From Escherichia coli (GTDB taxonomy: Bacteria; Pseudomonadota; Gammaproteobacteria; Enterobacterales; Enterobacteriaceae), in the NCBI RefSeq assembly GCF_024298765.1, contig NZ_CP101212.1: 64,000 nucleotides of DNA; one strand, given 5' to 3'. A program made the translations under genes and the position numbers. Each line of letters opens with the position of its first letter. Position 1 is the stretch's first letter. Positions 7,767 through 63,967 of this stretch are shown here, in pieces. The notes beneath the pieces were generated by a model. The model was not told where the DNA came from, searched no databases, and was given only the letters and a program-made list of their open reading frames with translations.

Positions 7767-8093
7767 ATGACTAAAAATACTCGTTTTTCCCCCGAAGTCC
7801 GTCAGAGGGCGATTCGTATGGTTCTGGAAAGTCAGGGCGAATATGACTCACAGTGGGCGGCAATTTGTTCCATTGCCCCAAAGATTGGCTGTACACCGGA
7901 GACTCTGCGTGTCTGGGTACGCCAGCATGAGCGGGATACCGGAGGCGGTGATGGCGGGCTCACCACCGCTGAACGTCAGCGTCTGAAAGAGCTGGAACGT
8001 GAAAATCGTGAACTGCGCCGCAGTAACGATATCCTTCGCCAGGCTTCCGCTTATTTTGCGAAGGCGGAGTTCGACCGCCTCTGGAAAAAATGA
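7767..8093 (+). CDS. IS629-like transposase OrfA (HTH)
   Basis: 108 aa, recognised as IS629/IS1203-type OrfA. Confidence 0.8.
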
Positions 8094-8966
8094 TGCCACT
8101 GCTGGATAAGCTGCGTGAGCAGTACGGGGTCGGACCGCTATGCAGCGAACTGCATATTGCCCCGTCAACGTATTACCACTGTCAGCAACAGCGACATCAT
8201 CCGGATAAACGCAGTGCCCGTGCGCAGCGCGATGACTGGCTGAAGAGAGAGATACAGCGCGTATACGATGTACGGTGTGCGTAAAGTCTGGCGTCAGTTG
8301 TTACGGGAAGGAATCAGGGTGGCCAGATGTACAGTGGCGCGCCTCATGGCGGTTATGGGACTTTCCGGTGTTCTCCGGGGTAAAAAGGTCCGCACTACCG
8401 TCAGCCGGAAAGCCGTTGTCGCAGGCGACCGCGTAAACCGTCAGTTCGTGGCAGAACGTCCTGACCAGTTGTGGGTGGCTGATTCTACTTACGTCAGCAC
8501 ATGGCAGGGGGTCGTCTATGTGGCGTTCATCATTGATGTGTTTGCCGGATACATCGTGGGGTGGCGGGTCTCATCGTCTATGGAAACGACATTTGTGCTG
8601 GATGCTCTGGAGCAGGCGTTATGGGCCCGTCGACCGTCCGGCACAGTCCATCACAGTGATAAAGGTTCTCAGTATGTATCGCTGGCCTACACACAGCGGC
8701 TTAAGGAAGCCGGATTACTGGCATCAACAGGAAGTACAGGCGACTCGTATGACAACGCGATGGCGGAGAGCATCAATGGCCTTTACAAAGCGGAGGTAAT
8801 ACACCGTAAGAGCTGGAAAAACCGTGCAGAAGTGGAACTGGCCACACTCACGTGGGTGGACTGGTATAACAATCGACGATTGCTGGAAAGGCTGGGCCAT
8901 ACTCCTCCGGCAGAAGCAGAAAAAGCTTATTATGCTTCCATCGGAAACGATGATCTGGCAGCCTGA
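8090..8966 (+). pseudogene. IS629-like transposase OrfB, split between two frames near 8270
   Basis: ORFs 8090..8284 and 8268..8966 are in different frames; DDE core intact in second piece. Confidence 0.55.
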
Positions 8967-9105: not shown

Positions 9106-11737
<2,632 letters not shown>

Positions 11738-17499: not shown

Positions 17500-17880
17500 A
17501 ACAGGGAGCCGTTTTCTTGTGCATAGAAACCCCCCAGCTAGGCTGGGGGTTCCGGAAAGCTTTCAGCTTTGAGCCAGTTATTAAAACCCCTTTTGATTTA
17601 TTAAAACACCTTGCGGTCTGGCAACTGCAAGTGTCAAACAAGAAATCAAAAGGGGGTCCCAATGGGGAACGAAAAGAGCTTAGCGCACACCCGATGGAAC
17701 TGTAAATATCACATAGTATTTGCGCCAAAATACCGAAGACAGGTGTTCTACAGAGAGAAGCGTAGAGCAATAGGCTGTATTTTGAGAAAGCTGTGTGAGT
17801 GGAAAAGTGTACGGATTCTGGAAGCTGAATGCTGTGCAGATCATATCCATATGCTACAATGTTTGTCAAAGCTCAGTGAA
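17500..17880 (+). mobile_element. IS200 remnant: left-end hairpin and 3'-truncated tnpA (17662..about 17852)
   Basis: aaaccccccagctaggctgggggtt hairpin; translation MGNEKSLAHTRWNCKYHIVFAPKYRR...ECCADHIHML then divergence. Confidence 0.6.
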
Positions 17881-24915: not shown

Positions 24916-25389
24916 TTAGCCTTTTTTCCAAATCTGGTATGTATAATTTATATTAGACATAAAAAACTGTTCAAAAACCAAATTGAAATTCTCAGGCATT
25001 ATAGGGAATTTGATATCACCTTCGACTTCAACGTGAACAGTAGACAAATGAATTATATCTGCTTTTTCAATAAGGCTATTATAGATTTGACCCCCGCCAG
25101 AGACATATACATGATCTGTAACTTTTGATAGCTCTTTCAAAGCATTTTCTATTGAAGGAAAAACTAGGACGTTTTCATTTGAGCTTGAAATTCCGTTCTT
25201 TGACACTACTGCATATTTGCGATTTGGAAGAACACCCATAGAGTCAAATGTTTTTCTTCCGACAAGGAGCCATTGATTATATGTGAGCGCTTTAAAGAGT
25301 AGTTGCTCACCTTTTACTGACCACGGGATATCAGGACCACTACCGATTACGCCATTTTCTGACACTGCAGAAATCAATGATATTTTCAA
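24916..25389 (-). CDS. dfrA17: Trimethoprim-resistant dihydrofolate reductase, DfrA17-like cassette (TTG/GTG start)
   Basis: (M)[15 protein letters not shown]... about 157 aa DHFR; first cassette next to attI1. Confidence 0.75.
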
Positions 25390-25546
25390 TTTAACTCCCT
25401 TAATGGCTAACTTTGTTTTAGGGCGACTGCCCTGCTGCGTAACATCGTTGCTGCTCCATAACATCAAACATCGACCCACGGCGTAACGCGCTTGCTGCTT
25501 GGATGCCCGAGGCATAGACTGTACAAAAAAACAGTCATAACAAGCC
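25390..25546. promoter_or_regulatory. Class 1 integron attI1 and cassette promoter region
   Basis: Position between intI1 start and first cassette; not dissected base by base. Confidence 0.4.
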
Positions 25547-32091: not shown

Positions 32092-32950
32092 TTGCCCATC
32101 GATATGGGGAGCTCATCTGCACTGTTCATTAATATACTTCTGGGCTCCCTACAGTTGTTTTTGCATAGTGATAAGCCTCTCTCTGAGGGAGGAAATAATC
32201 CTGTTCAGCGATGTCTGCCAGTCGGGGGGGCTGCATTATCCACGCCCGAGGCGGTGGTGGCTTCACGCGGGGATGGGCAGATTGATCTGATATGCAACCG
32301 ACGACGACCAGCGGCAACATCATCACGCAGAGCTTCATTTTCAGATTTGGGCCACCTTTTGATTTCTCGTTTAACTTTTGCAGTCACCAGACTGTGATTT
32401 ATTTTAACAAATCAATAGCTTTCATAAAATTCTCGAAGCTGAAAGCTTAACTGAACCAACCAGCCTGGCTGGTGTTTTCTAAAGACAAAAAGGCCATCAG
32501 CAAAACACTGATAGTCTGAATCACCTTTATCAATCATGTATGAAGAAAATATGCGCAATTAGTTGACAGTGATTATCATTTTCATTAAAAAGAGCGCGTA
32601 GCATTCTTATTTCATGAGGAAATTTACCCGCCAACAACCTGAGTAGCGAAAGCTGTTCATCCCCAATATTTTTGCTGGCGGGTTCTTTTTTCTACTGTCC
32701 TCCTCCCCAGAGGAAGCATTCCCATTAATCATTACTGGCGAGGAGGCAAGAGAAAAAGTCGGTTCTTTGTCCCTAAATAACAGCATCATTTCAGTCCATG
32801 CAAAATCTGATTTACCAGCTCACATAATAACCTGATGATACACAGTGTAAGTTCACAGAGATATTGCAATTGCCTCCGGATAAGTAAGGGGAGATTGCAC
32901 TATGCAAATGCAGCACCTGAGGTTGGCTATCCTAAGCAGCCGATTATGCG

Positions 32951-48393: not shown

Positions 48394-48485
48394 TCTTCAC
48401 CTCCATAAAAGTTATATTTAAATATAACATCCACTAAAAAAACACACCAGGCTTTAACGCACAATGTTTAATAAAAATATAACTT

Positions 48486-49139
48486 TCAACCAAACAGTAA
48501 ACCCAGCGTGGTTGCTTCCATATGCAGCAATACCGGCAGCAGCAGGCCACCACTTCTGATCCTGGCCACTGATGTAATCAACCCCACCAGGAACAGTTCT
48601 GCCAGTGTCAGCAGGTTCTGATACTGGCTGTGCGCGGCGACGAACAACAACGACGTTATCAGCGCCCCCAGCCACATCGTCCAGCAGTACCGTGAACGGA
48701 AGACGTTCAGCATAATCCCCCGGAACAGCGTTTCCTCATTCAACGGGGCAAGGATAAAGATGGTCAGCAACGTCAGGATCACGTCAGGTATGGACTTATC
48801 GGCAAAAAGTTTCGTCATAAATGGCTCAGCAGGCAGAGCCAGCGCCTTACCGAGCAGAAATACACCGACATACACCACGGCCATCGCACCGACCAGCCAC
48901 GGTACGCCAACGTTGCGCAGCTGACCAACGACCGGTAGCGGAGCTATCCAACGGCGGTATACCAGGAAAACACACAGCAGGTACATCAGAACAGTACCAT
49001 GACTGAAGAACAAATAGTTTTTTCCTGATCCATAAAGCAGAACGGCCTGCTCCATGACAAATCTGGCTCCCCAACTAATGCCCCATGCAGCCAGCATAAC
49101 CAGCATAAACTGCAGATATTGATTACGTGTTTGAATCAT
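48486..49139 (-). CDS. CPBP-family (Abi/CAAX-protease-like) membrane protein at the position of R100 tir
   Basis: 217 aa multi-TM protein with EETLFRG and HSQYQ motifs; lies between ori/repA4 region and pemI as tir does in R100. Confidence 0.55.
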   Translation of the reverse strand: MIQTRNQYLQFMLVMLAAWGISWGARFVMEQAVLLYGSGKNYLFFSHGTVLMYLLCVFLVYRRWIAPLPVVGQLRNVGVPWLVGAMAVVYVGVFLLGKALALPAEPFMTKLFADKSIPDVILTLLTIFILAPLNEETLFRGIMLNVFRSRYCWTMWLGALITSLLFVAAHSQYQNLLTLAELFLVGLITSVARIRSGGLLLPVLLHMEATTLGLLFG

Positions 49140-49850
49140 TGCATCGCCTGTAAATTTTTAACTTGTCCTATTTTTGTCATTACCACGTATATACACATGT
49201 ATAACAATTCAGATATCGTTACCAGGATATGCCGCATCAGCGGCATGGAAGGCGGCACTCTGTTGTTTCATATGATACAGGAGTAAAACCGCCGAAGCCC
49301 GGCGTAAGCCGGTACTGATTGATAGATTTCACCTTACCCATCCCCAGCCCTGCCAGACCATACCCGCTTTCAGCCATGAGAGAGCTTCTGTGCGCGGTCG
49401 GAGTGGTCCCGACGAGGGTTTACCCGAAGTCGGGGCGTATCTCCGCGTTAGCGGGCCGTGAGGGCCGCTTACGAGCGTGTACTGAGAACTTCCAGCGAGA
49501 AGACTGACAGCGATGAAGATGTAGTTACAACATTCATAATTAAAAGCGACTCTGTTCCGGCCCGAAGGGCCGGGGCGGGGCCGCTTTTCAGTTATGAGGG
49601 AGGGGCTTTGTGGTTTCAGTTCTGCGCTGGTTCGGGGTTTTTCTGGAGGTTGGTTTTGTGTGTTGTAACTAAAGTGGCTCCGGTTGGGGCCCGCCGTTTA
49701 CGGTGGGAGGTGCATATCTGTCTGTCCACAGGACAGGCAGTGAATAGGTTTTCTTTTTAAATGAATGTAATTAAGTAGTTTAAAGGAGATATAAACAGGT
49801 GTTTAAAAGATACATTGCACCCTGTAAGGGGTCAGTTTGGATATCGAAAA

Positions 49851-52800
49851 TTATTGTACGTTAAGGCTGTTTTTTGACCTTTCGACTTTAGCTGGTCTTA
49901 GCCGACGAAACTTACCAGAAGCCGGTATCCGGTTGCTTTTCCAGATATAATCACCTGTCAGATTGATGTGTTCCCAGCCCAACGGCGACAAATGCGACAG
50001 CAGTTGCTCGTTGATCTTCACCCCTTTACGCTTCAGGGCATCGACCGCTCTTTCCATATAGACGGTATTCCACAGGGATATGGCAGCCGTCAGCAGCGTC
50101 AGTCCACTGGCGCGATAGCTCTGATTTTCCGGTTTTCTGTCCCTGATTTCTCCCAGTCGGTGCATAAATACCGCACGCGCCAGCGCGTTACGGGCTTCGC
50201 CTTTATTCAGCCCCGCCTGTACCCGCCGACGCAGAGCCGGGTCGCGGAACCAGTCGAGCATAAACAGGGTTCGCTCAATGCGGCCAATTTCTCTCAGTGC
50301 TTTGGCAAGTCCGTTTTGCTTGGGATAGCTGGCAAGCTTTTTCAGCATCAGGGATGCCGTCACGGTTCCCTGCTTTATCGAGGTTGCCAGACGCAGCACT
50401 TCACGCCAGTGGATTTCGATCTCTTTCAGATTCAGGCTGGTCGTTGATATCAGTGACTGAAGCGCCGGGTATTTCTCTGCTTTCCCTTTGATAAACAGTT
50501 TTTTGTCGTGGAGATCCCTGATTCGCGGACAGAACGCAAATCCCAACAGATGCATCAGGGCAAAGACATGATCGGTGAAACCAGCGGTATCGGTGTAATG
50601 TTCCCTGATTTCCAGGTCGCTTTCGTGGTACAGCAAGCCATCGAGAACATGGGTTGAATCCCTGACCCGACTGATTATGCAGGTGTAAAACGGGCTGTAT
50701 TGATCCGAAATATGGGTATAAAACTGACGTCCAGGCTCTTGCCCATATTTCGGGTTAACCTGCCCTGCGTAGCGGCCTGAGCTGCCGGTTCTGAAATTTT
50801 GTCCATCTGATGATGACGTTGTTCCGTCTCCCCAAAATGCCGCCAACGGTCTTTTCCCCTGCGCATTTACCAGCTCTGCAAGAGCGGCTGAATAGGTTTC
50901 GTCACGGATGTACCATGCCTGAATATCTTCGAGTGATGATTTGGTGCTCCCGGGGCAGGCTTCTGCCATTTTGGTCAGGCCAAGATTGATGCCATCCGCA
51001 AGAATGGTGGTGAGGAGCAAGCGGGTATCGGGACGGGTAATGTCATTTTTTATATGCGAAAAATGTCGGGTAAACGTCGTCCAGCTGTTTACCTCATCGA
51101 GAATTTCCGTGATTTTAGGTCGCGGTAGCATGCTGTAAACCAGCTCTGCCAGCGGTGAAACCTGCGCCGGAACGCAGTTATCCAGCGGAGAGACTTTTAC
51201 GCCCCTGTCGGATATTTCCACATCGGGCAGTTCACCAAGGGCAGCCATGGCATTGACCTCTTCAAGTCTGGACTGAAGCAGGGTCATACGGCTGGTAATG
51301 TACTCATGATAATCAGCAGATACGGGCAGTGGCAGTGCCGGTGTGAGTTTGTCAAAGTCCTTCTCGGGTATGAGGTAATCATCAAAATTTTTGTAGCGGC
51401 GCGAGCCTTTAACCCAGATATCCCCGGAGCGCAACGCCCCCTTAAGCTCGCTGAGTGCACAAAACTCATAGTACTGCCGGTCAATACCCACAGGTGTAAT
51501 CACCACCTTGCGCCAGCTTTCAGGGACAAACTCAAGCGGCGCTGCCGCCGGAACTTTACGTGACTGCTTCCGGTACATATCCTTGATCACAACCAGTGCA
51601 TCAGCCAGAGGTTGCGCTGCCGGGGTTGCGACTAACTGTAAAGCGGACAACATGCGTGGGGCATATTTCCGTAATGTGCTGTATTTCTCGGTAATAATAT
51701 GCAGCGGGTCAAAATTATTTTTTCTGGCGAGATGGCGTGTTTCATCCAGACTGGCGACAAATTCAGCCCATGGGAGTATGTTTTCTATTGCGAGCCAGGG
51801 ATCGCCACCGGAATCACGGGCATCAGACAGCGCCTGACCGACATCGATGTACTGCCTCAGTTTTGACTGGATCAGCTTTCCGGTCTGCTGAAGGCGCTCA
51901 GCCTGTGTTCGTTTGGCTTTGCTGAAAAGACTATTCAGCATTCGCTCATGCAGCTCAATCACTTCGTCTGTCAGTGTGGCTCTGGCTTCTTCCAGCACGC
52001 ACACCAGGATCGCATGACGCCGGGCAGCTGAAAATCGGGTCAAATCCCGGCTACTCATCTTTCGGCCTTCCCGCGCCAGTTTCAGCAACCGGTTCTGGTG
52101 AATGGTACGATCTATACCTTCAGGTAATGCCAGCGATTCAATGCTGCTGAGCCGATCAAGATGTTGCAGCACGTTCTTACCATTGATTTTACCCGGCGGT
52201 TGCAGAAGCCATGTCAGCCTGGAAGGCTGATTATCTGATGACTCAAGTAAATGATCCAGGGCATCCCTGTGAGCCGGAGTTAACGGGGCATTCAGGGTCT
52301 GAAATACGATTTTATCGCCGCCTGCCATGACTTCAGCACAGGTACGCTCCACGACATCAATCGCGGGGATTATCACGTTGTTCTGCCGGAGATAGACAAG
52401 TAACTCTTCGGCTAGGAGAATGCCTTTATCGGTGCGCGTCGCCATCGATAACAGGTGCGTAATACAGTCCTGCTGTATTTTGCCGGTGAACGCCTTTACG
52501 CCAAGATAGCGGTACAGTTCGGTTAAATGCTCACGCCGGGTCGTATCCCGGCCGGAAAGGTAAGCAGGCCAGAGATCCCCGGTAAGCTTTAGCCTGCTGG
52601 CGATATGCTTCAGCAGCGCATCAGAGGGAGAGATTTTTTTATCCGGGGCAAAGCCGACATTTTTCAGATAGCAAAGAAGGACGGCAAAACCAAAACGGCT
52701 GGCGGGTTTACGGTGAGCACTGATAAGCGCCAGATCATGCTCACTGAAATAGGCCATTCGGGTCAGCGTTAACTCATCGTCCGGTAATGCCAGTAATGAT

Positions 52801-52880
52801 TCTCTTTCCGACAGAGAAAGAATCTGCCTCCTTGCCATATAGTTTTCCTCATAAATTATTCGATGCGTTATTTTTAACAA
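49851..52880 (-). CDS. tnpA: Tn3-family transposase TnpA
   Basis: 1009 aa; C-terminal region with GDGTTSSSDGQ...HYTDTAGFTDHVFAL motifs; 3' end runs into the IR. Confidence 0.85.
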   Translation of the reverse strand: MLKITHRIIYEENYMARRQILSLSERESLLALPDDELTLTRMAYFSEHDLALISAHRKPASRFGFAVLLCYLKNVGFAPDKKISPSDALLKHIASRLKLTGDLWPAYLSGRDTTRREHLTELYRYLGVKAFTGKIQQDCITHLLSMATRTDKGILLAEELLVYLRQNNVIIPAIDVVERTCAEVMAGGDKIVFQTLNAPLTPAHRDALDHLLESSDNQPSRLTWLLQPPGKINGKNVLQHLDRLSSIESLALPEGIDRTIHQNRLLKLAREGRKMSSRDLTRFSAARRHAILVCVLEEARATLTDEVIELHERMLNSLFSKAKRTQAERLQQTGKLIQSKLRQYIDVGQALSDARDSGGDPWLAIENILPWAEFVASLDETRHLARKNNFDPLHIITEKYSTLRKYAPRMLSALQLVATPAAQPLADALVVIKDMYRKQSRKVPAAAPLEFVPESWRKVVITPVGIDRQYYEFCALSELKGALRSGDIWVKGSRRYKNFDDYLIPEKDFDKLTPALPLPVSADYHEYITSRMTLLQSRLEEVNAMAALGELPDVEISDRGVKVSPLDNCVPAQVSPLAELVYSMLPRPKITEILDEVNSWTTFTRHFSHIKNDITRPDTRLLLTTILADGINLGLTKMAEACPGSTKSSLEDIQAWYIRDETYSAALAELVNAQGKRPLAAFWGDGTTSSSDGQNFRTGSSGRYAGQVNPKYGQEPGRQFYTHISDQYSPFYTCIISRVRDSTHVLDGLLYHESDLEIREHYTDTAGFTDHVFALMHLLGFAFCPRIRDLHDKKLFIKGKAEKYPALQSLISTTSLNLKEIEIHWREVLRLATSIKQGTVTASLMLKKLASYPKQNGLAKALREIGRIERTLFMLDWFRDPALRRRVQAGLNKGEARNALARAVFMHRLGEIRDRKPENQSYRASGLTLLTAAISLWNTVYMERAVDALKRKGVKINEQLLSHLSPLGWEHINLTGDYIWKSNRIPASGKFRRLRPAKVERSKNSLNVQ

Positions 52881-53099
52881 AAATGGTTATCGCATAAGGG
52901 TATACCCTGACACCATAATCTAAACGTGACGGCACACAATGAACGACATAGCCTATATGCGATAGATTAAATGCAATAACCTAAATGCGGTAATGCGGTG
53001 AAAAAATGTTCATCAGCACTTATTTAAGGGCATAGACGGAAGATCAGTTCACCGATCGGGCAAAAGAGATGCTGGAGCAGTTTGTTTAGGAGCGGGGGC

Positions 53100-53410
53100 A
53101 TAAAATAGCCAGTTACTACCGGGAGAATATCAGCGGTACAAAACTTGACCGACCGGAACTGGGTCGCTTACTGATGGACAGTCACCGCAATGATATTTTG
53201 CTGGTCGAGCAAATTGACCGCCAGCGCCAAAAGCAGGGAGTTGAACTCGCACATACGCTGGGTAAATATCAGGGAAAACAGGTCGCTCAGGAACGGCATC
53301 AAAAGGTACTTTACTACCGGCAGGTCAAGAAAGAAACGGCAGATGCAACAGGGTACAGCACCTCCCAGATATGCCACATTCAGGCACTGTACCGACAATC
53401 AGAATCATGA
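53100..53410 (+). pseudogene. Serine resolvase (tnpR) remnant
   Basis: Fragmentary translation ...DSHRNDILLVEQIDRQRQ... resembles resolvase core but no intact ORF. Confidence 0.35.
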
Positions 53411-53537
53411 GACTTTGGTTAAGCAGGTATGCAGAGCAGAATTTATAATCTATTTCATTCAGACTGATTAAATGGATTACAGAAGCTAAAGGGTCTTCTT
53501 TGTTCAACATGAAACCAGAAGACCCTTACTATTATTA

Positions 53538-54373
53538 TTAAAAAAGCAATTGGGTCAGATACCCCATAAGTATGGCCATACCCAGGATTACTGTCAGAAA
53601 AGCGACTATCATAGGCATTCTGAACATTGATTTAAGCAGTATTACTTCTGTCAAACTCGCTCCAGCACTACCGATTATCAAGGCCATTAATGCCCCCAGG
53701 CCCATTCCTTTAGTCATCAGCACTGATGCAAGTGGTATCACTGCCTCTGCGCGGATATACAACGGAATACCAACAACTGCACTCAGCGGTATGGCTAAGG
53801 GATTATCTGCTCCGGCATGAGCTGCAATCCACTCTGAAGGGATAAAGCCATAAATAAATGAACCTATTAATACACTTAACAAAAGATAAGGCAGAACATC
53901 CTTAAACTGCTGTAAGGCATCTTTCATAGCTAACTTTATTGGGCCAGAGGTGGTATTCGTTGTGAGATTCACATTGCCCAGATTCTCGCTGCTGCAACAG
54001 CTAACAGCTGGTTGTTCAGATGATATTGATGAACAACACGCTGATACGTTCTGCTCGTTCTTTACCGTCCTTAAGTTAATTATGGGGTTCGCTGATGAAG
54101 TACAGCAACTCGTTTTTAAAGGCAATTGAGTCGAGCTAGTGCTGCAACAACTGGAACCCGCCGACGTTTTTACCGAAGCTTCGGAATCATCGCATTTCGT
54201 GGTGCAACCACTTGATGCTGAGTTTTTGTGATCAACAATATGACGTTCAAATCCTAGTAAATCCAATACGATACTGGCAAGGACTGAGACACCGGCAGCG
54301 ATGATCGCGTACAACAAAGTTACTTTCCAGCCAAAGGTAACCCACATTAACCCCACGATAATGGGATTAAGCG
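53538..54373 (-). pseudogene. ArsP-like permease, C-terminal part (downstream of IS66 insertion)
   Basis: Continues in frame from the N-terminal part across the 8-bp duplication (…SPLLN|PIIVGLMWVTFG…); contains a Cys/Ser-rich loop with repeated vicinal CC. Confidence 0.55.
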
Positions 54374-54402
54374 TAAGCGGCTCGTCAGAACCGTATTGAT
54401 AT

Positions 54403-55974
54403 TTACTGAGAGCTCAGATCAACTTTCCAGGGCAACAGATCGCGTACCCGGTTTGCCGGCCAGTCCTGGATATGTTCAATGACGTAACGCAGCCACTTTT
54501 CTGGCTCCACATTGTTCAGACGGCATGTGCCGATCAGCGAGTACAACACCGCCGCATGTTCACCACCGCTGTCGGAACCCGCGAACATCCAGTTTTTCCG
54601 GCCTACGGCCACTCCCCGTAAGGCGTTCTCTGCGATGTTGTTGTCGATTTCCACCCAGCCATTACTGCAGTACACGTTCAGTGCATCCCACTGTTTCAGC
54701 AGGTATGCGAACGCTTTTGCCGTATCTGAGTGACGCGACAGTGTTTTCATCTGTTGCTGTATCCAGTCATACAGTGACTGCATCAGTGGCGCGGCTCTGG
54801 CTTTTCTTGCCGCCAGACGCTGTTCTGCTGAACAGCCCCGGACCTCTGCCTCGATGGCATACAGTTCACCGATACGCTGCAGGGCTTCCGTGGTGATGTC
54901 GGTGGGCGCTCTTGCATGCACATCGTGGATTTTTCTCCGGGCATGAGCCATACACGCGGCTTCCGTTATTCTGCCGGATTCGTATAACACCCGGTAACCA
55001 CCGTAAGCATCGGCCTGAAGCACACCGCTGTAACCGGCCAGGTGATTTTGTGGATGGATACCTTTCCGGTCCGGACTGTACGCGAACCAGACCGCCGGGG
55101 GCATCTGTGAACCGGCGTTGCGATCATCACGGACGTAGACCCACAGCCGGGCTGTCCGGGTTTTACCGCTGCCCGGCTCCTGGACCGGGACGGGGATATC
55201 ATCGGCATGGACTTTACCGGGCATCAGCACATACTGGCGCAGGACGTCATACAGCGGCTCCAGCAGTTCAGCAACAGCACCTGTCCAGCGCCCCAGTGTG
55301 GCACGGCTCAGCTCCACGCCCTGGCGACGGTATATTTCTGACTGGCGGTATAACGGCAGATGGTCTGCATATTTCCCGGTGACAACATGGGCCAGAAGCC
55401 CCGCTCCGGCATAACTGCGTGCAATGGGTTTTGAAGGCACCGGTGCCTGCACGATATGGTCGCACCGGCAACAGGCCTGTTTCGGACGTTGTGTTTCGAT
55501 AACCTTAAAGGCACTGCTGATAAGCTCCAGTTGCTCTGACACATCACATCCCAGTGGACTGAGTTCACCACCACAGGCCGGACAGCATTCCTCTTCCGGC
55601 CGGATGACCCGGGGTTCACGGGGAAGTGAAGCCGGTAACGGTTTACGGGCTGAAGACTGGCGCAGGGGGGATGGCAGTACCGGGTCATATTGCTCACCCA
55701 GCGTTTCTGCCATTTCTTCCTGAAGTGCGCTGATTCGCTCCTGTGCTTCCTGTATCTGCCGTTCGGTTTTTGCGCGAAGTTTTTCTGAGCTTTTACCGAA
55801 CTGCATACGCTGCAGTTTCGCAACCAGCGCCTTCAGCCGGTTGATTTCGGAAGCATAAGCCGCCACCCGCTGTGAGAGCAGGCGGTTGTATTCGGCCATC
55901 TGGCGGATGGTGTCCTGTTGCGTCTGCAACAGTGCCTGCAGGCGGGCATTCTCATGAGCAAGTGAGGTGTCCAT
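54403..55974 (-). CDS. IS66-family transposase TnpC
   Basis: 523 aa with zinc-finger-like CPACGG...CRCDH and DDE domain. Confidence 0.85.
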
Positions 55975-55993
55975 ATCCTCACTTTACAACGGG

Positions 55994-56341
55994 TTATATA
56001 CGGATTCCAGCGCGTTCCGTTCGTTTCGGGTGCTTCCAGTCGATGCCCTCGAGAAGCATGGATAACTGAGCCGGAGTAAGGTGCACCTTGCCGTCACGGG
56101 TGACTGGCCAGACGAAGCGGCCCCGCTCCAGGCGTTTGGTGAAGAGGCACAGTCCGTCACTGTCAGCCCACAACACTTTTATCTGGTCACCCCGGCGTCC
56201 GCGGAAGATGAACAGGTGTCCGGAGAACGGGTCATCCTTCAGGACGTTCTGAACTTTTGAGGCCAGGCCGTTAAAGCCATTTCGCATATCGGTGATACCT
56301 GCAACCAGCCAGATACGCGAACCTGCAGGGAGAGATATCAT
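55994..56341 (-). CDS. IS66-family TnpB
   Basis: 115 aa. Confidence 0.8.
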   Translation of the reverse strand: MISLPAGSRIWLVAGITDMRNGFNGLASKVQNVLKDDPFSGHLFIFRGRRGDQIKVLWADSDGLCLFTKRLERGRFVWPVTRDGKVHLTPAQLSMLLEGIDWKHPKRTERAGIRI

Positions 56342-57018
56342 CAGTGGCTGCTCCCTTTTATTTCGCGGATAAGTGTCTGTAATAACGCCGGCGTCAGTTT
56401 ACCTTTAAGCCTGAGAGTTCCGGCCGGCAGAACCAGCTCACAACACAGACTGTCGGACGGTGTATTTATCTGCTCTGGTTCCTGTGCGGGGGCCGGGATT
56501 TTATTATCCGGCTCCGGCGTTAACGTCACGGGAAGCAGTGCCGGCATATTTTTTCCGGAAGGCAGCAGGCCACCTTTCCGGTATTGATGGCGCCAGTTGA
56601 AGAGCAGGTTATCGTTGATTCCGTTTTCCCGGGCGATCTGCGCCACACAGGCTCCGGGCTGCAGTGACTGCTCCACTAAGGCGATTTTAAACTCATAAGG
56701 GAAGTTGGGCCGCCGGGGACGTTTTTTTACCACGGGGGCTTCGGATATAACGGTGCTTTCAGGACGTACGACTGGTACCGTGGAAAATTGTCCGTAAAGG
56801 CAGGCATCAAGTTCCTGCTCCGACATGCCTGCGGGCAAAGGCCACGAAAGGCCAGCTCTCCGAAAGCGCACGAACATACTACAAACTGTTGATTTTGATA
56901 CACCCAGGCGACGCCCGGCCACAACCCGGGGTAAATGTTCTTCAAAGTGAAGACGTAAAGCTTCAGTGATCCAGGTCCGGTGTTTCATACGATAGTGTCC
57001 ATTAAAAATGATGGACAT
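56341..57018 (-). CDS. IS66-family accessory protein TnpA (orf1)
   Basis: 225 aa, HTH-containing. Confidence 0.7.
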   Translation of the reverse strand: MSIIFNGHYRMKHRTWITEALRLHFEEHLPRVVAGRRLGVSKSTVCSMFVRFRRAGLSWPLPAGMSEQELDACLYGQFSTVPVVRPESTVISEAPVVKKRPRRPNFPYEFKIALVEQSLQPGACVAQIARENGINDNLLFNWRHQYRKGGLLPSGKNMPALLPVTLTPEPDNKIPAPAQEPEQINTPSDSLCCELVLPAGTLRLKGKLTPALLQTLIREIKGSSH

Positions 57019-57071
57019 TATTTTTGTAGAGCCGGAGGAAACAGACCAGACGGTTTAAATGAGCCGGTTAC

Positions 57072-57396
57072 GATTAAGCAACGGTGAAACAAACAAAAAA
57101 GTGAGTGTCGGACCAAACCCTGCTTTCGCCGACAACAACCCTCGTAGCATTGGAATTGTTGAGCAACTACAGAAAGGGGTAACGGCTCCCAACAACGAGG
57201 CCAGCAGGTAGCCTTTTCCTTTTTTCGCCCCTATCAATTGCTGGATTTTATGGTCCGGGACCTTTTGCCTTATCAGGCTCACACCGGCACTGATGACAAT
57301 AAACAGCAAAGATAGCTCGACGGCCAAAAACAAAAACATCTCTGCGGCATCTTGCAGCATAGAAATCCAACTATTCATACTAAACCCTCTTGACAA
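57072..57396 (-). pseudogene. ArsP-like permease, N-terminal part with TPFCSCSTIP motif
   Basis: 108 codons ending at the IS66 junction. Confidence 0.55.
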
Positions 57397-57483
57397 AATC
57401 TACGTTTCTAGAATAATCGAAATATAATTCTGGTCAAGATATTTCTGGTATTATCGAAATATCATTAGACAGAGGGTTGTCAC

Positions 57484-57807
57484 ATGCAACTGGAAGAAGT
57501 AGCTAAAGCACTAAAAGAGCTGGGTCACCCGACCCGTTTGTTCATATTCAAACATCTTGTAAAAGCTGGAGAACAAGGTTTGCCTGTAGGTGAATTGCAA
57601 AAGCAGCTTGGCATTCCCTCATCAACGTTAAGTCATCATATTTCAGCCCTGGTATCAGTAGGGCTCGTCACACAAAACCGGGAGAGTCGAACGCTCATGT
57701 GTGTCTCTCAATACGAAATACTGGAAGCTATCATCGAATTCTTACGTGAAGAGTGCTGTGTAAACAGTAAAACAGATGTTGCGGAACACGCTGGCAAAAA
57801 TGGATAA
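57484..57807 (+). CDS. ArsR/SmtB-family metalloregulatory repressor
   Basis: 107 aa winged-HTH protein divergent from the permease gene; dyad tcgaaatat...atatttc in the shared intergenic region. Confidence 0.7.
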   Translation: MQLEEVAKALKELGHPTRLFIFKHLVKAGEQGLPVGELQKQLGIPSSTLSHHISALVSVGLVTQNRESRTLMCVSQYEILEAIIEFLREECCVNSKTDVAEHAGKNG

Positions 57808-57908
57808 GTAACCGGAAAACTCATAACTGTCATGATTGACGAAAGCTGCATCGGGTGATGCTGCCAACTTACTGATTTAGTGTATGATGGTGTTTTTGAG
57901 GTGCTCCA

Positions 57909-58184
57909 GTGGCTTCTGTTTCTATCAGCTGTCCCTCCTGTTCAGCTACTGACGGGGTGGTGCGTAACGGCAAAAGCACTGCCGGACACCAGCGCTATCT
58001 CTGCTCTCACTGCCGTAAAACATGGCAACTGCAGTTCACTTACACCGCTTCTCAACCCGGTACGCACCAGAAAATCATTGATATGGCCATGAATGGCGTT
58101 GGATGCCGGGCAACTGCCCGCATTATGGGCGTTGGCCTCAACACGGTTTTACGTCACTTAAAAAACTCAGGCCGCAGTCGGTAA
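57909..58184 (+). CDS. insA: IS1 InsA
   Basis: 91 aa. Confidence 0.85.
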
Positions 58185-58606
58185 CCTCGCGCATACAACC
58201 GGGCAGTGATGTGATTGTCTGCGCTGAAATGGACGAACAGTGGGGCTACGTCGGTGCTAAATCACGTCAGCGCTGGCTGTTTTACGCGTATGACAGGATA
58301 CGGAGGACAGTTGTGGCGCACGTTTTCGGTGAACGCACTCTGGCCACACTGGAGCGTCTTCTGAGCCTGCTGTCACCCTTTGACGTGGTGATATGGATGA
58401 CGGATGGCTGGCCGCTGTATGAATCCCGCCTGAAGGGAAAGCTGCACGTAATCAGCAAGCGATATACGCAGCGAATTGAGCGGCATAACCTGAATCTGAG
58501 GCAGCACCTGGCACGGCTGGGACGGAAGTCGCTGTCGTTCTCAAAATCGGTGGAGCTGCATGACAAAGTCATCGGGCATTATCTGAACATAAAACACTAT
58601 CAATAA
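58103..58606 (+). CDS. insB: IS1 InsB
   Basis: 167 aa. Confidence 0.85.
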
Positions 58607-58999
58607 GTTGGAGTCATTACCCGCATGATTCAGCAGATAAATCCTTGAAAGCAGGTACTCAGCCCTCAGTGAACAGAATAAGTCAGCGTAATGTACTTTA
58701 GTGCTGACCACGTGCTCTGTATGATACAGAATCTATCTACTATAAACGAAAATACAGCACGATCAATGCTCACACTCTATATGGGACGTTCGTACCTGGA
58801 CATGATTATCTGTGTTCAATGTCCCCGCATGACCGTCTTAACATCCAGAATATTACGTTTCCAAAAAAACCAGAAATGATAAAAAATGAGCTTAACGTAC
58901 AATAATTTTCGATATCCAAACTGACCCCTGTAAGGCTGGCGCCTGGCGCTTTATGACATGAACGGTTGTAACCTTATGGGGAAGTCCATTGCAGTTAAA

Positions 59000-59008
59000 T
59001 GTGGATAA
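59000..59008 (-). promoter_or_regulatory. DnaA box (TTATCCACA on minus strand), probable RepFIIA oriR
   Basis: tgtggataa on plus strand, downstream of repA1 in the position expected for oriR. Confidence 0.4.
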
Positions 59009-59111
59009 GCAAAATTCCCCGTCTGTGAGGCGTGTTTTGTATCAAAAACAGGGGGGGCCAGATGCACCAGAAGGGTAAGCGTGCAGCAAGAACCGTATTG
59101 ACGGGGATGTG

Positions 59112-60650
59112 TTATTCAGTCGGCAGTGCTACGCGCCAGGGGAGCAGTTCGCCGACCCGGTTTATCGGCCAGTCGGCTATGACGTCAAGGACATAGCGGA
59201 GGTAGCTTTCTGGCTCCACTCCGTTCAGTTTGCACGTCCCGATCAGGCTGTACAGCAGCGCTCCCCGCTCTCCTCCATGATCCGAACCGAAGAACAGGTA
59301 GTTTTTGCGGCCCAGACTGACCATCCGCAACGCATTTTCAGCGATGTTATTGTCCGCCTCAGCCCAGCCATCATCTGCATAGTACGTCAGCGCCGGCCAC
59401 TGGTTCAGGGCGTATGCGAACGCTTTCGCCAGTTCTGAGTGTCGCGACAGGGTTTTCATCTTTTCACGCAGCCAGCTTTCCAGGGATTTCAGCAGCGGTT
59501 TCGTTTTCAACTGACGTTCGGCAAGGCGCTGCTCCGCCGTCATTCCCCTTATCTCTGCCTCGATGGCGTACAGTTCGCCGATCCGTTTCAGCGCTTCCTC
59601 CGTCAGGGCTGACGGGGTGCGAACGTGCACATCGTGGATTTTACGGCGGGCGTGAGCCCAACAGGCGGCTTCCGTTATCCGGCCATCCCGGTACAGCTCG
59701 TTGAACCCGGCGTATGCATCCGCCTGCAGTACACCACTGAACCCCGCAAGATGGGTCTGCGGATGGATGCCTTTTCTGTCCGGGCTGTAAGCGAACCACA
59801 CCGCCGGCGCCAGCGTTGACCCGGCGTTACGGTCGTCACGAACGTAGGTCCATAACCGCCCGGTCTTCGTTTTCTTATTGCCTGGCAACAGCACCGGGAC
59901 AGGCGTGTCATCAGCATGGAGCTTACCGTCAGTCAGCACATAGTCCTGAAGCGCTTCTTCCAGCGGTGACAGTAGCCGGCAGCATGCATCCACCCAGCCC
60001 GACAGCAGTGAACGACTCAGCTCCACGCCCTGGCGGCCGTACATTTCAGACTGGCGGTACAGCGGGGTGTGCTCTGCATACTTTGAGATCAGCACGCGGG
60101 CCAGCAGCCCCGGTCCTGCGATACCCCGCTCGATGGGCCGTGAAGGCGCGGGGGCCTGCACGATGGCATCGCACTGAGTACAGGCATGCTTTTCACGTAC
60201 AGTCCGGATAACCCGGAAGGCGCTGCGCATCAGCTCCAGCTGTTCGGCGGCATCCTCACCCAGATAGCTCAGCGAGCCTCCACATTCCGGGCAGCATGAC
60301 GCTGCCGGCAGCAGCCGTTTTTCATCGCGGGGGAGTGATTCGGGGAACGGTTTGCGGGTGCGGGTTTGACGCAGCGGGCGCTGCACGGCCGGGTCGTCAA
60401 CCCGACCGGTAAGGGTATCACTTTCTTTCTGAAGTGCCTTCAGGTCAGCTTCCATCTGTGCGATACGACGGGAGACTTTTTCCGAGCGGCTGCCGAAGTT
60501 CATCCGGCGCAGCTTATCCAGCTGTGCCTGCAGATGGTCTATTTCGCGTTCACGCTCGTTCAGCTTTTCCTGCAGGGCACGGTTCAGCGCCTCCTGTTCG
60601 GCAAGGAGACGTTTCAGTGCATTGATATCGTCAGGAAGTGAGCTGCTCAT
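59112..60650 (-). CDS. IS66-family transposase TnpC
   Basis: 512 aa, paralogous to 54403..55974. Confidence 0.85.
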
Positions 60651-60698
60651 ACCGGGTATATTACCAGGCTCATTCAGCGTCGACCAGGATAAAGAGGC

Positions 60699-61046
60699 TT
60701 ACAACATAGTCAGGGACGTAAGCAGTCTTTTAGGCTGCCGCCAGTCGATACCTTCCAGCAGCATCGCCAGCTGTGCCGGTGTGAGGAACACTTTGCCATC
60801 CCGGGCTGACGGCCAGGCGAAGCGGCCGCGCTCCAGCCGTTTGGTCAGCAGACACAGTCCATCGCCGGTAGACCAGAGGAGCTTTACCTGACTGCCATTA
60901 CGCCCACGGAAGATAAAAACGTGACCTGACATCGGATCGTCTTTCAGCGTCGTCTGCACCTTTGCCGCCAGGCCGTTGAAGCCGTTTCTCATATCGGTGA
61001 TGCCAGCGACCAGCCAGATCTTTGTCCCTGATGGTAATGGGATCAA
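60699..61046 (-). CDS. IS66-family TnpB
   Basis: 115 aa. Confidence 0.8.
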   Translation of the reverse strand: MIPLPSGTKIWLVAGITDMRNGFNGLAAKVQTTLKDDPMSGHVFIFRGRNGSQVKLLWSTGDGLCLLTKRLERGRFAWPSARDGKVFLTPAQLAMLLEGIDWRQPKRLLTSLTML

Positions 61047-61447
61047 CGTTTGAGCTCCCGTATCAGCAGGTTCAGGATATTTTCACTGATGGCACCATTC
61101 AGACGGAGTGATCCGTGCCGGAACGTCACTTCACAGCTGATATTGAGTGATTCAGGTGTCGCAGTAGCTACAGGTTGTGACCGGGGGGAGGTTGTAGGGA
61201 CAACATCTTCGGCATCAAGTGTTATCGGGAGCAGCTCAGGCACGTTGTTTTCTGTTGTTGAAGGAGGACGTAGTTTTCCTTCGCGCCAGTACTGGCGCCA
61301 CTTGAACAGCAAATTATCGTTGATCCCATGCTCACGAGCGAGTTGCGCTACGGAGATCTCTGGTCGATGCGAGAGTTCAACCATTTTGATTTTGAACTCA
61401 ACGGGATAATTAGGGCTTTTTTTACGCACTGCGGTTAATGATTTCAT
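61043..61447 (-). CDS. IS66-family accessory protein TnpA (orf1)
   Basis: 134 aa. Confidence 0.7.
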   Translation of the reverse strand: MKSLTAVRKKSPNYPVEFKIKMVELSHRPEISVAQLAREHGINDNLLFKWRQYWREGKLRPPSTTENNVPELLPITLDAEDVVPTTSPRSQPVATATPESLNISCEVTFRHGSLRLNGAISENILNLLIRELKR

Positions 61448-61645
61448 GGATAGCGTCCACCATATTTGGTGTCCACTATTCTCTCAGGAATTTCAGGATC
61501 TGCCAGACGGTGCTGAGACGACGCTTACCCAGAAGGTGGATGATGAGGTTGTTTTTTGTATGAGGTGCTGCTTTTTTGTTCGCTGGCAGGCTTCAGGCGT
61601 GCGAATGCCTCCGGTGCGGGCCGGATTATTCAGAAGAGGTCACTT

Positions 61646-62503
61646 TCAGGGGGAAGCTGTGGCCAGCCGGCTGTAATTACGGTTACGTGACAGAATCATG
61701 CGCTCTTTCACACGACGCTCCACTTCGCGTTTTACCGCCTCACGATTGGCAGTGAAGCGCCCTTCCGAGATTTCACGCGTCAGCTGCCGTTTCACCAGGG
61801 TGACGATATCCTGACGTTCCCTGTTCGCATCACGACGCGCACGGGCACGCTTTATTCCACGGGACTTAAGCTCTGTCTGGTAACTGCGGAAACGCTCACG
61901 CACAAAACGCCAGGCTTTCGCTATCAGTTCATCCATACCCAGGGTATCCAGCCCCTGCTTTTTGCGCTGTCTGTTTTCCCATTCAACACGACTGCGGCGC
62001 GCAGCAACCACTGCATCCTCAGACACATCAAGGGCGGCAAATAACGCCGGTGTGAACGTGATATCGGTCGGAATGTAGCACCCGATAAGCGGATCATATT
62101 CCGTCTGGTAGGTAATCAGTCCCAGCTCTGCAAGGAACGTCAAGGCTCGGGAGGCCCGGGTGATGGAGAGTTTTCCGGCAGCAGACTCCGTCGCCAGTCC
62201 GCACTCAATGGCCAGCGTAGTGATGGAGCACTGGACGCGGTTGGCCAGCGGGTCATAGTGAAAACACAGCCCCTGCAGCAGCGCATCAATAGCCCGGCGA
62301 CGCAGTACCGGTGGCATGCGCCGACGCAGTCCCTTCGAACGGGCATGTGCCACATGAATGGCGAAATCAAAACGGGAGGTGAAGCCCACCGCCTTTTCCA
62401 TCAGTTTTTCGCAGAACTTCAGCGTTCCGGCACCTTCACGGGGTGTGAACACCGGATTCGGATTTTTAACCTGTGAATAGTATTTTTGAAGGAGATCAGC
62501 CAT
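61646..62503 (-). CDS. repA1: RepFIIA replication initiator RepA1
   Basis: 285 aa from [24 protein letters not shown]...; recognised as IncFII RepA1. Confidence 0.85.
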
Positions 62504-62990
62504 GTCCCCCTCCAACACTATTCCCCCTCCTACGGGCGGTAACTAGCTCGTCTGGGCCGACACGTAAAGTTTCGAACATATCTGGTCTGAACCAGATGGT
62601 TCCTCCATCAAAAGCGATGAGATGAAGATCATTATCAAGAGTTTTGAGGGCTCTCCAAACACGAGTGTATGAACCTCCACTACAAACTGAAAGCTCTTTA
62701 ACAGATAAGTTAACTTTGTTCGTATCAGGGATGTAGTGTGCGCACATTACTTGTACGAGGGAAACATAAAAACTAACCATCGACGCGCTGATTTTATTTT
62801 TACGTTTGCCATGCGCTATTGCAAGCAAACCTCTGATGAAGATCAGATGCTTGAAGGAGTCAAAATGAGCCCTTTTCTGGAGAAGGCTGCAAAACGGGTG
62901 AGGATACTTGCTGGAATCAATGTGAAGATCTGATTCAATCCCACCCGCTATTACTGAATGTGTTTCATGATTAGCCACACCATCCTGCAC
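62496..62990 (-). CDS. Leader-position ORF homologous to the N-terminal half of RepA1; stop overlaps repA1 ATG (ATGGCTGA)
   Basis: Hand alignment: FCSLLQKRA vs FCEKLMEKA; [29 protein letters not shown] vs [29 protein letters not shown]; [11 protein letters not shown] vs [11 protein letters not shown]. Confidence 0.4.
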
Positions 62991-63109
62991 TTACAATGCA
63001 CAGAAGGAGTGAGCACAGAAAGAAGTCTTGAACTTTTCCGGGCATATAACTATACTCCCCGCATAGCTGAATTGTTGGCTATGCGGTTTTATGGGGCCCC
63101 GGTAATCTT

Positions 63110-63210
63110 TCTAGTCGCCAAACTTGAAGAAGATTATCGGGGTTTTCGCTTTTCTGGCTCCTGTAAATCCACATCAGAACCAGTTCCCTGCCACCTTACG
63201 GCGTGGCCAG
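63110..63210 (+). ncRNA. copA: CopA-like antisense RNA region of the IncFII copy-control system (approximate)
   Basis: Stem-loop ctgccac-cttacggc-gtggcag between repA2 and the repA1 leader; boundaries not determined. Confidence 0.35.
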
Positions 63211-63276
63211 CCACAAAATTCCTTAAACGATCAGCAATCTACCACTCACTCCTGAGATAAGCAAGAATGTGAATAT

Positions 63277-63534
63277 TTACGAAGTCGCTCTGCGTTTCAG
63301 CTCTGATTCAATCAGTTTTTCAAGCATCTGCGCCTGAGTAATACCTTCCTCATCCGCCAGTTCACTCAGCCTGTCTTTTAACCGGGCCTGAATAACCGCA
63401 TGAAAAGCCTTATGAGTGTTGCTTCTGCGAGCCAGAGAAGCTCTTTGCCTCTCTCTGGCCGGAACAGGGTTACCTTTCCGGTATGTACGCTTGGTGCCTG
63501 ATGAGGAAGTCACTGCATTTTCTGTCTGCGACAT
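63277..63534 (-). CDS. repA2: RepA2/CopB copy-number repressor
   Basis: 85 aa [31 protein letters not shown]... Confidence 0.8.
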
Positions 63535-63817: not shown

Positions 63818-63967
63818 TTACTTCCGTGCTTCGTAGGCCAGAGTTACCTGCACCACTGTATTTCCTCTGTGAATATTCAGCTCACATAACCGTTCCCTGA
63901 ATATCAGTGAAAAACACAACACCGTGGCGCACACGGCGAGCAACCCGATAAGGGCATATTTCGTCAT
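63818..63967 (-). CDS. srnB: Hok/Gef-family toxin (SrnB-like), 49 aa; below the ORF-track size cut-off
   Basis: Minus-strand translation MTKYALIGLLAVCATVLCFSLIFRERLCELNIHRGNTVVQVTLAYEARK; hairpin cggggacttccgtccccg just downstream. Confidence 0.7.
   Translation of the reverse strand: MTKYALIGLLAVCATVLCFSLIFRERLCELNIHRGNTVVQVTLAYEARK

Follow-up and report, generated by a model that had tools for sequence, protein, structure and literature searches.

The 64,000-nucleotide window analysed here, a stretch of DNA from Escherichia coli (RefSeq assembly GCF_024298765.1, contig NZ_CP101212.1), carries an IncFII-family plasmid replicon in which a short open reading frame (ORF), resembling one half of the initiator RepA, is placed between the leader peptide tap and the complete initiator gene repA1. 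Judged by its sequence, the replicon is an ordinary RepFIC-type (IncFIC(FII)) variant of the IncFII replicon controlled by antisense RNA. The arrangement is already known, since RepFIC sequence has been in the literature from the 1980s on and the arrangement was remarked on in 2009. We propose, as a fairly probable reading of the whole, that the short ORF is a relic of an exchange of initiator modules and has been retained as a translated bridge, relaying the control exerted by CopA and tap to repA1. The proposal starts from direct observations: the gene order, the two stop/start overlaps, the homology of the ORF to RepA, the mosaic relationship to plasmid R100, the prevalence of the arrangement and the conservation of frame and overlaps in diverged relatives.

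Gene order and overlaps of the replicon

All coordinates are positions in the window, and the replicon is read 5' to 3' on the minus strand. It starts with copB, or repA2 (63277..63534, minus strand), coding for a transcriptional repressor of the repA promoter of 85 amino acids (NCBIfam PRK13702, E=3e-39). The antisense RNA CopA, complementary to the leader of the rep mRNA, is located on the plus strand at 63063..63151 (Rfam RF00042, 93.6 bits versus a gathering score of 60), and a consensus scan placed a promoter-like site at 63028-63056 (plus strand) and a terminator-like hairpin at 63059-63086. Then come the leader peptide tap (24 amino acids, 62971..63045, minus strand; NCBIfam TIGR03475, E=3e-16), the short RepA-like ORF, which ends at 62496 on the same strand, and repA1 (61646..62503, minus strand), a complete IncFII initiator of 285 amino acids (TIGR03474, 580 bits versus a cut-off of 446.9). 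The sequence GTGGCTAA is common to the tap stop codon (TAA) and the start of the short ORF, and ATGGCTGA is common to the stop codon of the ORF (TGA) and the start of repA1.

The short ORF can be read as 164 codons from a GTG at 62990 or as 160 amino acids from a GTG at 62978. The latter is the more likely start, because it overlaps the tap stop in the same position and geometry as the repA start does in R100, and because it is the one used by RefSeq, where the ORF of identical plasmids is entered as a "hypothetical protein" in the 160-amino-acid form (WP_001273588.1, 483 nucleotides).

The presence of copB, CopA, tap with its stop/start overlap and a full-length RepA places the replicon in the antisense-controlled IncFII family, with the difference that the cistron overlapping the tap stop is the short ORF and not repA1. 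The ORF resembles a coupling cistron in that its stop overlaps the start of the initiator, but it is not a domainless peptide of about 24-30 codons; it has 160 codons and a predicted winged helix-turn-helix.

An initial annotation of this DNA had reported an ORF of 164 codons, an unusually long interval between copA and repA1, and an overlap of the ORF stop with the repA1 start in the geometry of a leader peptide. All three observations hold: from its first GTG the ORF spans 62496..62990 (minus strand), the overlap is the one formed by ATGGCTGA, and the distance from the copB stop (63277) to the ATG of repA1 (62503) is 774 nucleotides, compared to about 305 in R100 (locus L010; copB end 38508, repA start 38813). 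The same annotation had put the ORF in the position of the leader peptide. This has to be corrected, because tap is intact upstream and the ORF occupies the position of repA, between tap and repA1.

Homology of the short ORF to RepA and its predicted fold

Alignment of the short ORF with RepA1 of the window by BLASTP gave 33% identity over 98 columns (ORF residues 77-154, RepA1 residues 74-170, E=1e-8), which bears out an earlier alignment by hand to the N-terminal half of RepA1. The NCBIfam model incFII_RepA (TIGR03474) matches the ORF weakly (residues 32-127 to model positions 21-124 of 275, E=0.002, 17 bits versus the cut-off of 446.9), while a Pfam scan of the ORF returned no match even at E<=10. 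In a multiple alignment, the homology with RepA proteins is collinear from about residue 25 to an "AARR" motif; relative to R100-type RepA, the short ORF carries two deletions of 13 residues each, and the C-terminal part of about 115 residues is absent. The RepA model is not matched over its full length, its C-terminal half included. On these alignments, the homology of the ORF extends only to the N-terminal half of IncFII RepA, and the ORF should not be called an initiator.

An AlphaFold model, based on an alignment of 26 sequences, predicts a helical bundle followed by a winged helix-turn-helix, with per-residue confidence (pLDDT) of 85-93 over residues 25-154. Foldseek comparison with the PDB returned generic DNA-binding domains of MarR, IclR and CRP-like type alone, none of them significant (best E=0.04), and thus no specific structural family; a sequence search of the PDB with the profile of the ORF family found nothing.

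The G+C content at third codon positions (GC3) is 0.40 in the short ORF versus 0.59 in repA1 of the window. Tandem duplication of the resident repA1 was considered as a source of the ORF and rejected: the ORF is no closer to its own downstream RepA (28-33%) than to other R100-type RepA proteins, and the composition differs. A chance ORF or a dead pseudogene was ruled out by conservation in relatives, where the frame stays open down to 65% amino-acid identity, far beyond chance.

Diverged relatives and selection on the short ORF

A protein search identified relatives of the short ORF with amino-acid identities of 65-84%, nearly all of them 157-163 amino acids long and all ending with "...NSVGGGH(D/G)". 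Eight diverged loci from Salmonella salamae, Citrobacter, Lelliottia, Klebsiella and metagenomes keep the order copB, tap, ORF, repA, with a RepA of 285 amino acids; a scan of genome contigs yielded only one locus, from Lelliottia. The overlap between tap and the ORF in the eight loci follows the pattern [GT]TGGCT[AG]A, and that between the ORF and repA follows ATGACTGA. The exception to the latter is locus L003, which no longer has the usual TGA; there, a shift of the frame by one base yields an ATGA overlap with repA. Apart from the window, ATGACTGA or ATGA was counted at this junction in 7 relatives.

The ratio of nonsynonymous to synonymous substitution rates (dN/dS) of the ORF lies between 0.19 and 0.48 in all 28 pairs. 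Variable sites at codon positions 1, 2 and 3 number 55, 43 and 90, respectively, and every insertion or deletion is in frame. Invariant residues number 54 and cluster in the predicted helix-turn-helix and wing. No segment of the replicon is more conserved than the short ORF: in a comparison of the window with the eight loci (L001-L008), nucleotide identity is 78-93% in the ORF, versus 73-82% in the leader region and 65-94% in repA. The dS of the ORF, 0.16-0.65, is below that of the neighbouring repA (0.6-2.2) by a factor of 2-5. A possible cause is that the module spread recently, by recombination between its conserved flanks (tap and the 5' part of repA); another is a constraint at the nucleotide level.

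The downstream RepA proteins of the relatives span at least three clades (R100-like, FIIK-like and a third one), while the short ORFs form one clade, and the trees of ORF and repA are incongruent; the modules have therefore been reshuffled. Two of the loci, L003 (4001-4600) and L006 (2950-3462), have a short ORF with a longer N-terminus, of 199 and 175 amino acids, respectively. The additional N-terminal residues resemble the N-terminus of RepZ-type initiators (KWDGVPSDEQIRL versus HWSQLDTEEQLRF), and this resemblance suggests a further round of recombination at the junction of tap and rep.

Mosaic structure and RepFIC identity

The mosaic was mapped by global alignment of the window to R100. 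The 5' part of copB (coding for the N-terminus) is 83% identical to R100, and its 3' part (C-terminus) is non-homologous. Identity of 94-95% extends from 63248 to 62973, over CopA and tap. A module of 499 bp unrelated to R100 then replaces 24 bp of R100 (62474..62972, minus strand); it spans the short ORF from codon 3 on, together with the first 10 codons of repA1. The stretch from 62473 to 61529 is 93% identical, repA1 being R100-like from codon 11 on. A similar alternation of homologous and non-homologous stretches relative to RepFIIA is reported to have been described by Saadi and coworkers in 1987.

Identity of 96-98% to the window over 996 nucleotides was found in the F' plasmid F128 (typed IncFIA/FIB/FIC). 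It extends from upstream of copB to 62705, where RepFIC of F128 is broken inside the short ORF by the end of Tn1000. The match includes copB (96% identical to RepFIC of F), CopA, tap and the first ~270 nucleotides of the ORF. With this level of identity, the control region and the short ORF are classical RepFIC sequence. Plasmids carrying the identical segment are typed IncFIC by MOB-suite, and the corresponding region of pAPEC-1 as well as that of pAPEC-O1-ColBM is 100% identical to the segment of the window. The region in pAPEC-1 was remarked on by Mellata et al. 2009 (PMC2626276) under the name "repFIIA-repFIC".

The initial annotation had attached special significance to the long spacing and the additional ORF, and this is not sustained. 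The outcome that it had itself named as a refutation holds: both are standard in the common RepFIC, or IncFIC(FII), subgroup, as follows from the IncFIC type of the identical plasmids and from the identity of 96-98% to the RepFIC remnant of F.

Prevalence of the module

Prevalence was determined with a 456-bp core of the 499-bp module as query, in PLSDB plasmids and in 5,426 complete E. coli genomes. The core occurs in 517 PLSDB plasmids (in 498 with an identity of >=99%) and in 525 of the genomes (~10%), nearly always on plasmids. The idea of a recombinant replicon, also put forward initially, thus keeps one part and loses another: the replicon is a mosaic compared to R100 and the ORF is a diverged N-terminal half of RepA of distinct composition, but a one-off recombinant is ruled out by these numbers. 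Among the sampled PLSDB matches, the gene downstream of the module is always a RepA of IncFII type; the combination of a window-type ORF with a RepZ-type initiator, a possible P307-like prototype, was not found among them.

At least one conjugative plasmid, of 85 kb, is typed IncFIC without IncFIB, which suggests that the arrangement of three cistrons is able to sustain replication. One oddly named repA (locus L027, 2358-3155; CP142574) is the same RepA1 with an in-frame deletion of 20 amino acids between two "SIT" repeats, in the predicted DNA-binding region; the plasmid in question carries IncFIB as well.

Half-RepA ORFs in other IncFII-family replicons

A profile search of 1.8 billion representative sequences found no full-length protein with the N-terminus of the short ORF. 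It did retrieve other short proteins (176-241 amino acids) that are homologous to the N-terminal half of RepA and have the same end point. All independent families of such half-RepA proteins stop just after the "AARR" motif, approximately at a domain boundary.

In more distant loci, tap is followed by an ORF of 183-192 amino acids (40-50% identical to the N-terminal half of R100-type RepA) and then by an initiator of the RepZ/I-complex type of 337-339 amino acids. The stop/start overlaps between the two are ATGGCTAA, ATGAGTAA, TAATG or 14 nucleotides long. By sequence comparison, these loci are chimeras of IncFII control with an I-complex-type initiator; an exchange of this kind is attributed to Kato & Mizobuchi 1994 in PMC5304414.

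A common Klebsiella IncFII replicon has an intervening ORF of only 57 amino acids, which equals the 183-amino-acid form with 126 codons deleted in frame. The deletion removes the folded domain, keeps the frame and leaves both 8-nucleotide overlaps in place, which argues that translation through the interval is selected. Both forms are situated between tap and a RepZ-type RepA, the 57-amino-acid one for example at 1635-1808 of L018 (Klebsiella, NZ_CP050337) and the 183-amino-acid one at 1257-1808 of L019 (LR890699). The 57-amino-acid ORF is present, unannotated, in at least 674 mostly Klebsiella plasmids (at least 80% of the query covered).

Predicted junction hairpin and proposed relay of antisense control

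An RNA hairpin is predicted at 62476..62523 (minus strand), in which the Shine-Dalgarno sequence of repA1 (GGAGGGGGA) is paired with repA1 codons 4-6, and the repA1 ATG and the UGA of the short ORF are located in the apical part. Its predicted free energy is -21.3 kcal/mol (z=-3.8), and none of 200 shuffled sequences was as stable. The pairs are kept in 8/8 family members, and comparable hairpins are seen in relatives, among them the ones that have RepZ-type initiators. For R1 and R100 (NR1), the work of Wu et al. 1992, as cited in PMC4398462, holds that translation of repA requires translation of tap, which is blocked by CopA bound to the leader.

The proposed course of events is as follows. 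The 160-amino-acid ORF would be the surviving 5' half of an older IncFII-type repA, left behind after recombinational exchange of the downstream initiator module. CopA bound to the leader would block translation of tap. Ribosomes terminating at the end of tap would restart at the overlapping GTG of the short ORF, and those reaching its UGA within ATGGCTGA would open the hairpin covering the ribosome-binding site of repA1 and restart at the repA1 ATG, so that antisense control acting at tap would be relayed across 480 nucleotides to repA1. The ORF would stay open because only recombinants that preserve the delivery of ribosomes to the initiator start could replicate under control. Such a two-step relay is consistent with three findings: both overlaps are conserved, L003 has changed frame to an ATGA overlap, and the Klebsiella form has lost the domain without losing the frame. 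For a dependence of repA1 translation on the ORF the support is of an indirect kind, from the predicted hairpin over the Shine-Dalgarno sequence and the ATG and from the conserved frame and overlaps.

Several points weigh against this proposal. Translation of the short ORF and dependence of repA1 on it are inferred from geometry and conservation, and the direction and history of the recombination events are likewise a matter of inference. No compensatory changes were found at the junction hairpin among the eight family members, so that the structure stands as a prediction and its conservation may be a by-product of coding constraint. The strong Shine-Dalgarno sequence of repA1 (GGAGG, 6-7 nucleotides upstream) makes some independent initiation possible. 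Finally, a role consisting solely in keeping the frame open leaves unexplained the dN/dS of 0.19-0.48, the top conservation of the ORF within the replicon and its dS 2-5 times lower than that of repA.

Alternative explanations

The selection acting on the amino-acid sequence would be accounted for if the short ORF encoded a functional trans-acting protein, a DNA-binding winged-helix domain of RepA origin that stands alone and modulates replication, for example by repression of the rep promoter, by competition for the origin or handcuffing, or by interference with related competitor plasmids. Such a role does not conflict with the relay and would come on top of it. The dN/dS of 0.19-0.48 in 28 pairs, the codon periodicity of 55/43/90 and the 54 invariant residues, mostly in the predicted helix-turn-helix and wing, all point in this direction, as do the confident model (pLDDT 85-93) of a helical bundle with a winged helix-turn-helix, whose nearest Foldseek matches are of MarR/IclR/CRP type, the rank of the ORF as the most conserved segment of the replicon and the shared end after "AARR" in independent families. 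However, the abundant Klebsiella form dispenses with the whole folded domain and keeps the frame, the fold matches are not significant (best E=0.04), and identity of only 33% to the N-terminal half of the resident RepA1 makes a shared DNA site or shared partners doubtful. The annotation is always hypothetical, and literature searches (RepFIC/RepA1/P307), with the primary RepFIC papers outside their scope, gave passing mentions only and no function. We regard a trans-acting protein as unlikely, although far from negligible. Given the purifying selection, the confidently predicted winged helix-turn-helix and the common truncation point, the chance that the protein also acts in its own right, next to serving as a bridge, is a real one, of the same size or slightly smaller. 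Slightly more doubtful is the wider notion that the protein is a conserved trans-acting winged-helix factor of IncFIC-type replicons (for example a modulator of copy number or incompatibility, or an inhibitor of competing IncFII plasmids) and that half-initiator genes at module seams constitute a recurrent functional class across IncFII-family plasmids.

The low synonymous divergence can be looked at in another way, as a sign that the segment owes its conservation mainly to a function of the nucleic acid (such as RNA structure, protein-binding DNA or an internal promoter of repA1) and not to translation; the contrast in dS between the ORF (0.16-0.65) and repA (0.6-2.2) and the distinct composition, with GC3 of 0.40, fit this view. 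It is hard to reconcile with third codon positions varying more than first and second ones and with dN/dS below 1; moreover, a consensus promoter scan of the minus strand inside the ORF found no promoter, no Rfam family matched in the ORF, and a recent spread of the module via conserved flanks, with ORF and repA trees incongruent, explains the low dS equally well. We consider this explanation improbable. Least credible, to the point of being very improbable, is an inert pseudogene fragment, a scar of recent recombination whose frame and overlaps were kept through near-clonality. Decay has had little time to proceed within E. coli, as 498 of the 517 plasmid copies are at least 99% identical, and the AT-rich drift and the two 13-residue deletions relative to R100-type RepA would suit a decaying fragment; but relatives in other genera, down to 65% amino-acid identity, retain the ORF length, the overlaps, in-frame insertions and deletions and a dN/dS below 0.5, and in L003 the loss of TGA is accompanied by the frame change that creates the ATGA overlap.

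Split origin and other elements of the window

Homology to R100 ends 117 nucleotides past the repA1 stop, at an IS66-family element (59074..61528, minus strand), which is inserted 110-117 nucleotides beyond the repA1 stop, within the spacer that separates repA1 from the origin oriR, and is flanked by the 8-bp duplication CCTTCTGG. Its genes are tnpA (61043-61447), tnpB (60699-61046) and tnpC (59112-60650), all on the minus strand. The left part of oriR, on the side of the DnaA box, follows at 58926..59073 (minus strand; 148 nucleotides, 95% identical to R100). A Tn3-family transposon of ~9.1 kb (49828..58925) is inserted within oriR between the DnaA box and the AT-rich region, with a 5-bp duplication TTACA, terminal repeats GGGGTCAGTTTGG and a transposase of 1009 amino acids (49851-52880); it appears to hold a second set of IS66-like ORFs (54403-57018). 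The AT-rich remainder of oriR and the downstream repA4-type region occupy 48448..49827 (minus strand) and are 98.8% identical to R100.

All sequence parts of the origin are thus present, but the two insertions separate and split what would be a contiguous oriR about 170 nucleotides downstream of repA. With the DnaA box on one side of the split and the AT-rich region on the other, this copy probably cannot initiate, yet it would still express CopA and CopB.

Directly upstream of copB, an ORF for a Hok/Gef-type toxin of 49 amino acids was noted (63818-63967, minus strand), and homologous plasmids annotate a Hok/Gef family protein there. Elsewhere in the window, Rfam matches at gathering level are located at 8048-8164, 9448-9534, 17529-17652, 25376-25457 and 32356-32477. 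They represent an ALIL pseudoknot (a frameshift signal of IS3 type), a group II intron domain, two STnc490 on opposite strands and an attI/AAC_AAD_leader element, the last of which indicates a class 1 integron.

Significance and comparison with known systems

IncF plasmids account for a large share of the virulence and resistance load in E. coli and Klebsiella, and the circuit of CopA, tap and RepA determines their copy number. If the proposed relay is true, this control runs through an additional translated cistron in about 10% of complete E. coli genomes and through a shorter form of it in at least 674 mostly Klebsiella plasmids, and the cistron should then be included in models of copy number, in designs for plasmid curing and in annotation, where the gene is currently a "hypothetical protein" or left uncalled. 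For replicon typing, the FII/FIC allele is uninformative as to which initiator follows. As a discovery this is modest, because the sequence has long been published; what may be new is confined to the ORF's interpretation as a relay cistron and to how widely the pattern extends. The possibly new elements are, in full, that interpretation, the purifying selection on the ORF and the recurrence of half-initiator ORFs at module seams of IncFII-family replicons.

Among the closest known systems is RepFIC of F and P307, IncFIC(FII) in replicon typing. In F the replicon is cut by Tn1000 inside the ORF; the ORF of the window is complete and followed by an R100-like repA1. With R1 and R100 (RepFIIA) the window shares copB, CopA, tap and the position of the stop/start overlap of tap; the start of repA1 has a stop/start overlap of the R1/R100 form (NTG-NC-TRA), and the ribosome-binding site of the initiator is predicted to be located in a hairpin, as in R1 and R100. 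It differs from them in having two coupling steps instead of one, with a cistron of 160 codons interposed and the CopA target about 470 nucleotides farther from repA1.

Shortened isoforms of initiators are known to modulate replication, such as the short form of pi of R6K and TrfA-33 of RK2; both are products of internal starts within the initiator gene and have their sequence in common with it. As in those cases, the operon of the window encodes a second, shorter polypeptide related to the initiator; unlike them, this protein would come from a separate, highly diverged paralogue devoid of the C-terminal 115 residues.

The publication dealing with pAPEC-1 and with pAPEC-O1-ColBM (PMC2626276) contains no analysis of overlaps, conservation or function, and their origin is not reported to be disrupted, whereas that of the window is split by two insertions. 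Modular replicons have been treated by Bardaji et al. 2017 and, as cited in PMC5304414, by Kato & Mizobuchi 1994. The chimeric IncFII/I-complex replicons (L011-L019) join copB and tap of IncFII type to a RepZ-type initiator; a half-RepA ORF lies where the two meet, and these replicons follow the same logic of module exchange as the window. In the window, by comparison, the relic belongs to the IncFII RepA type and so does the active initiator, and the role of the relic as a bridge is our own suggestion and does not come from those papers.

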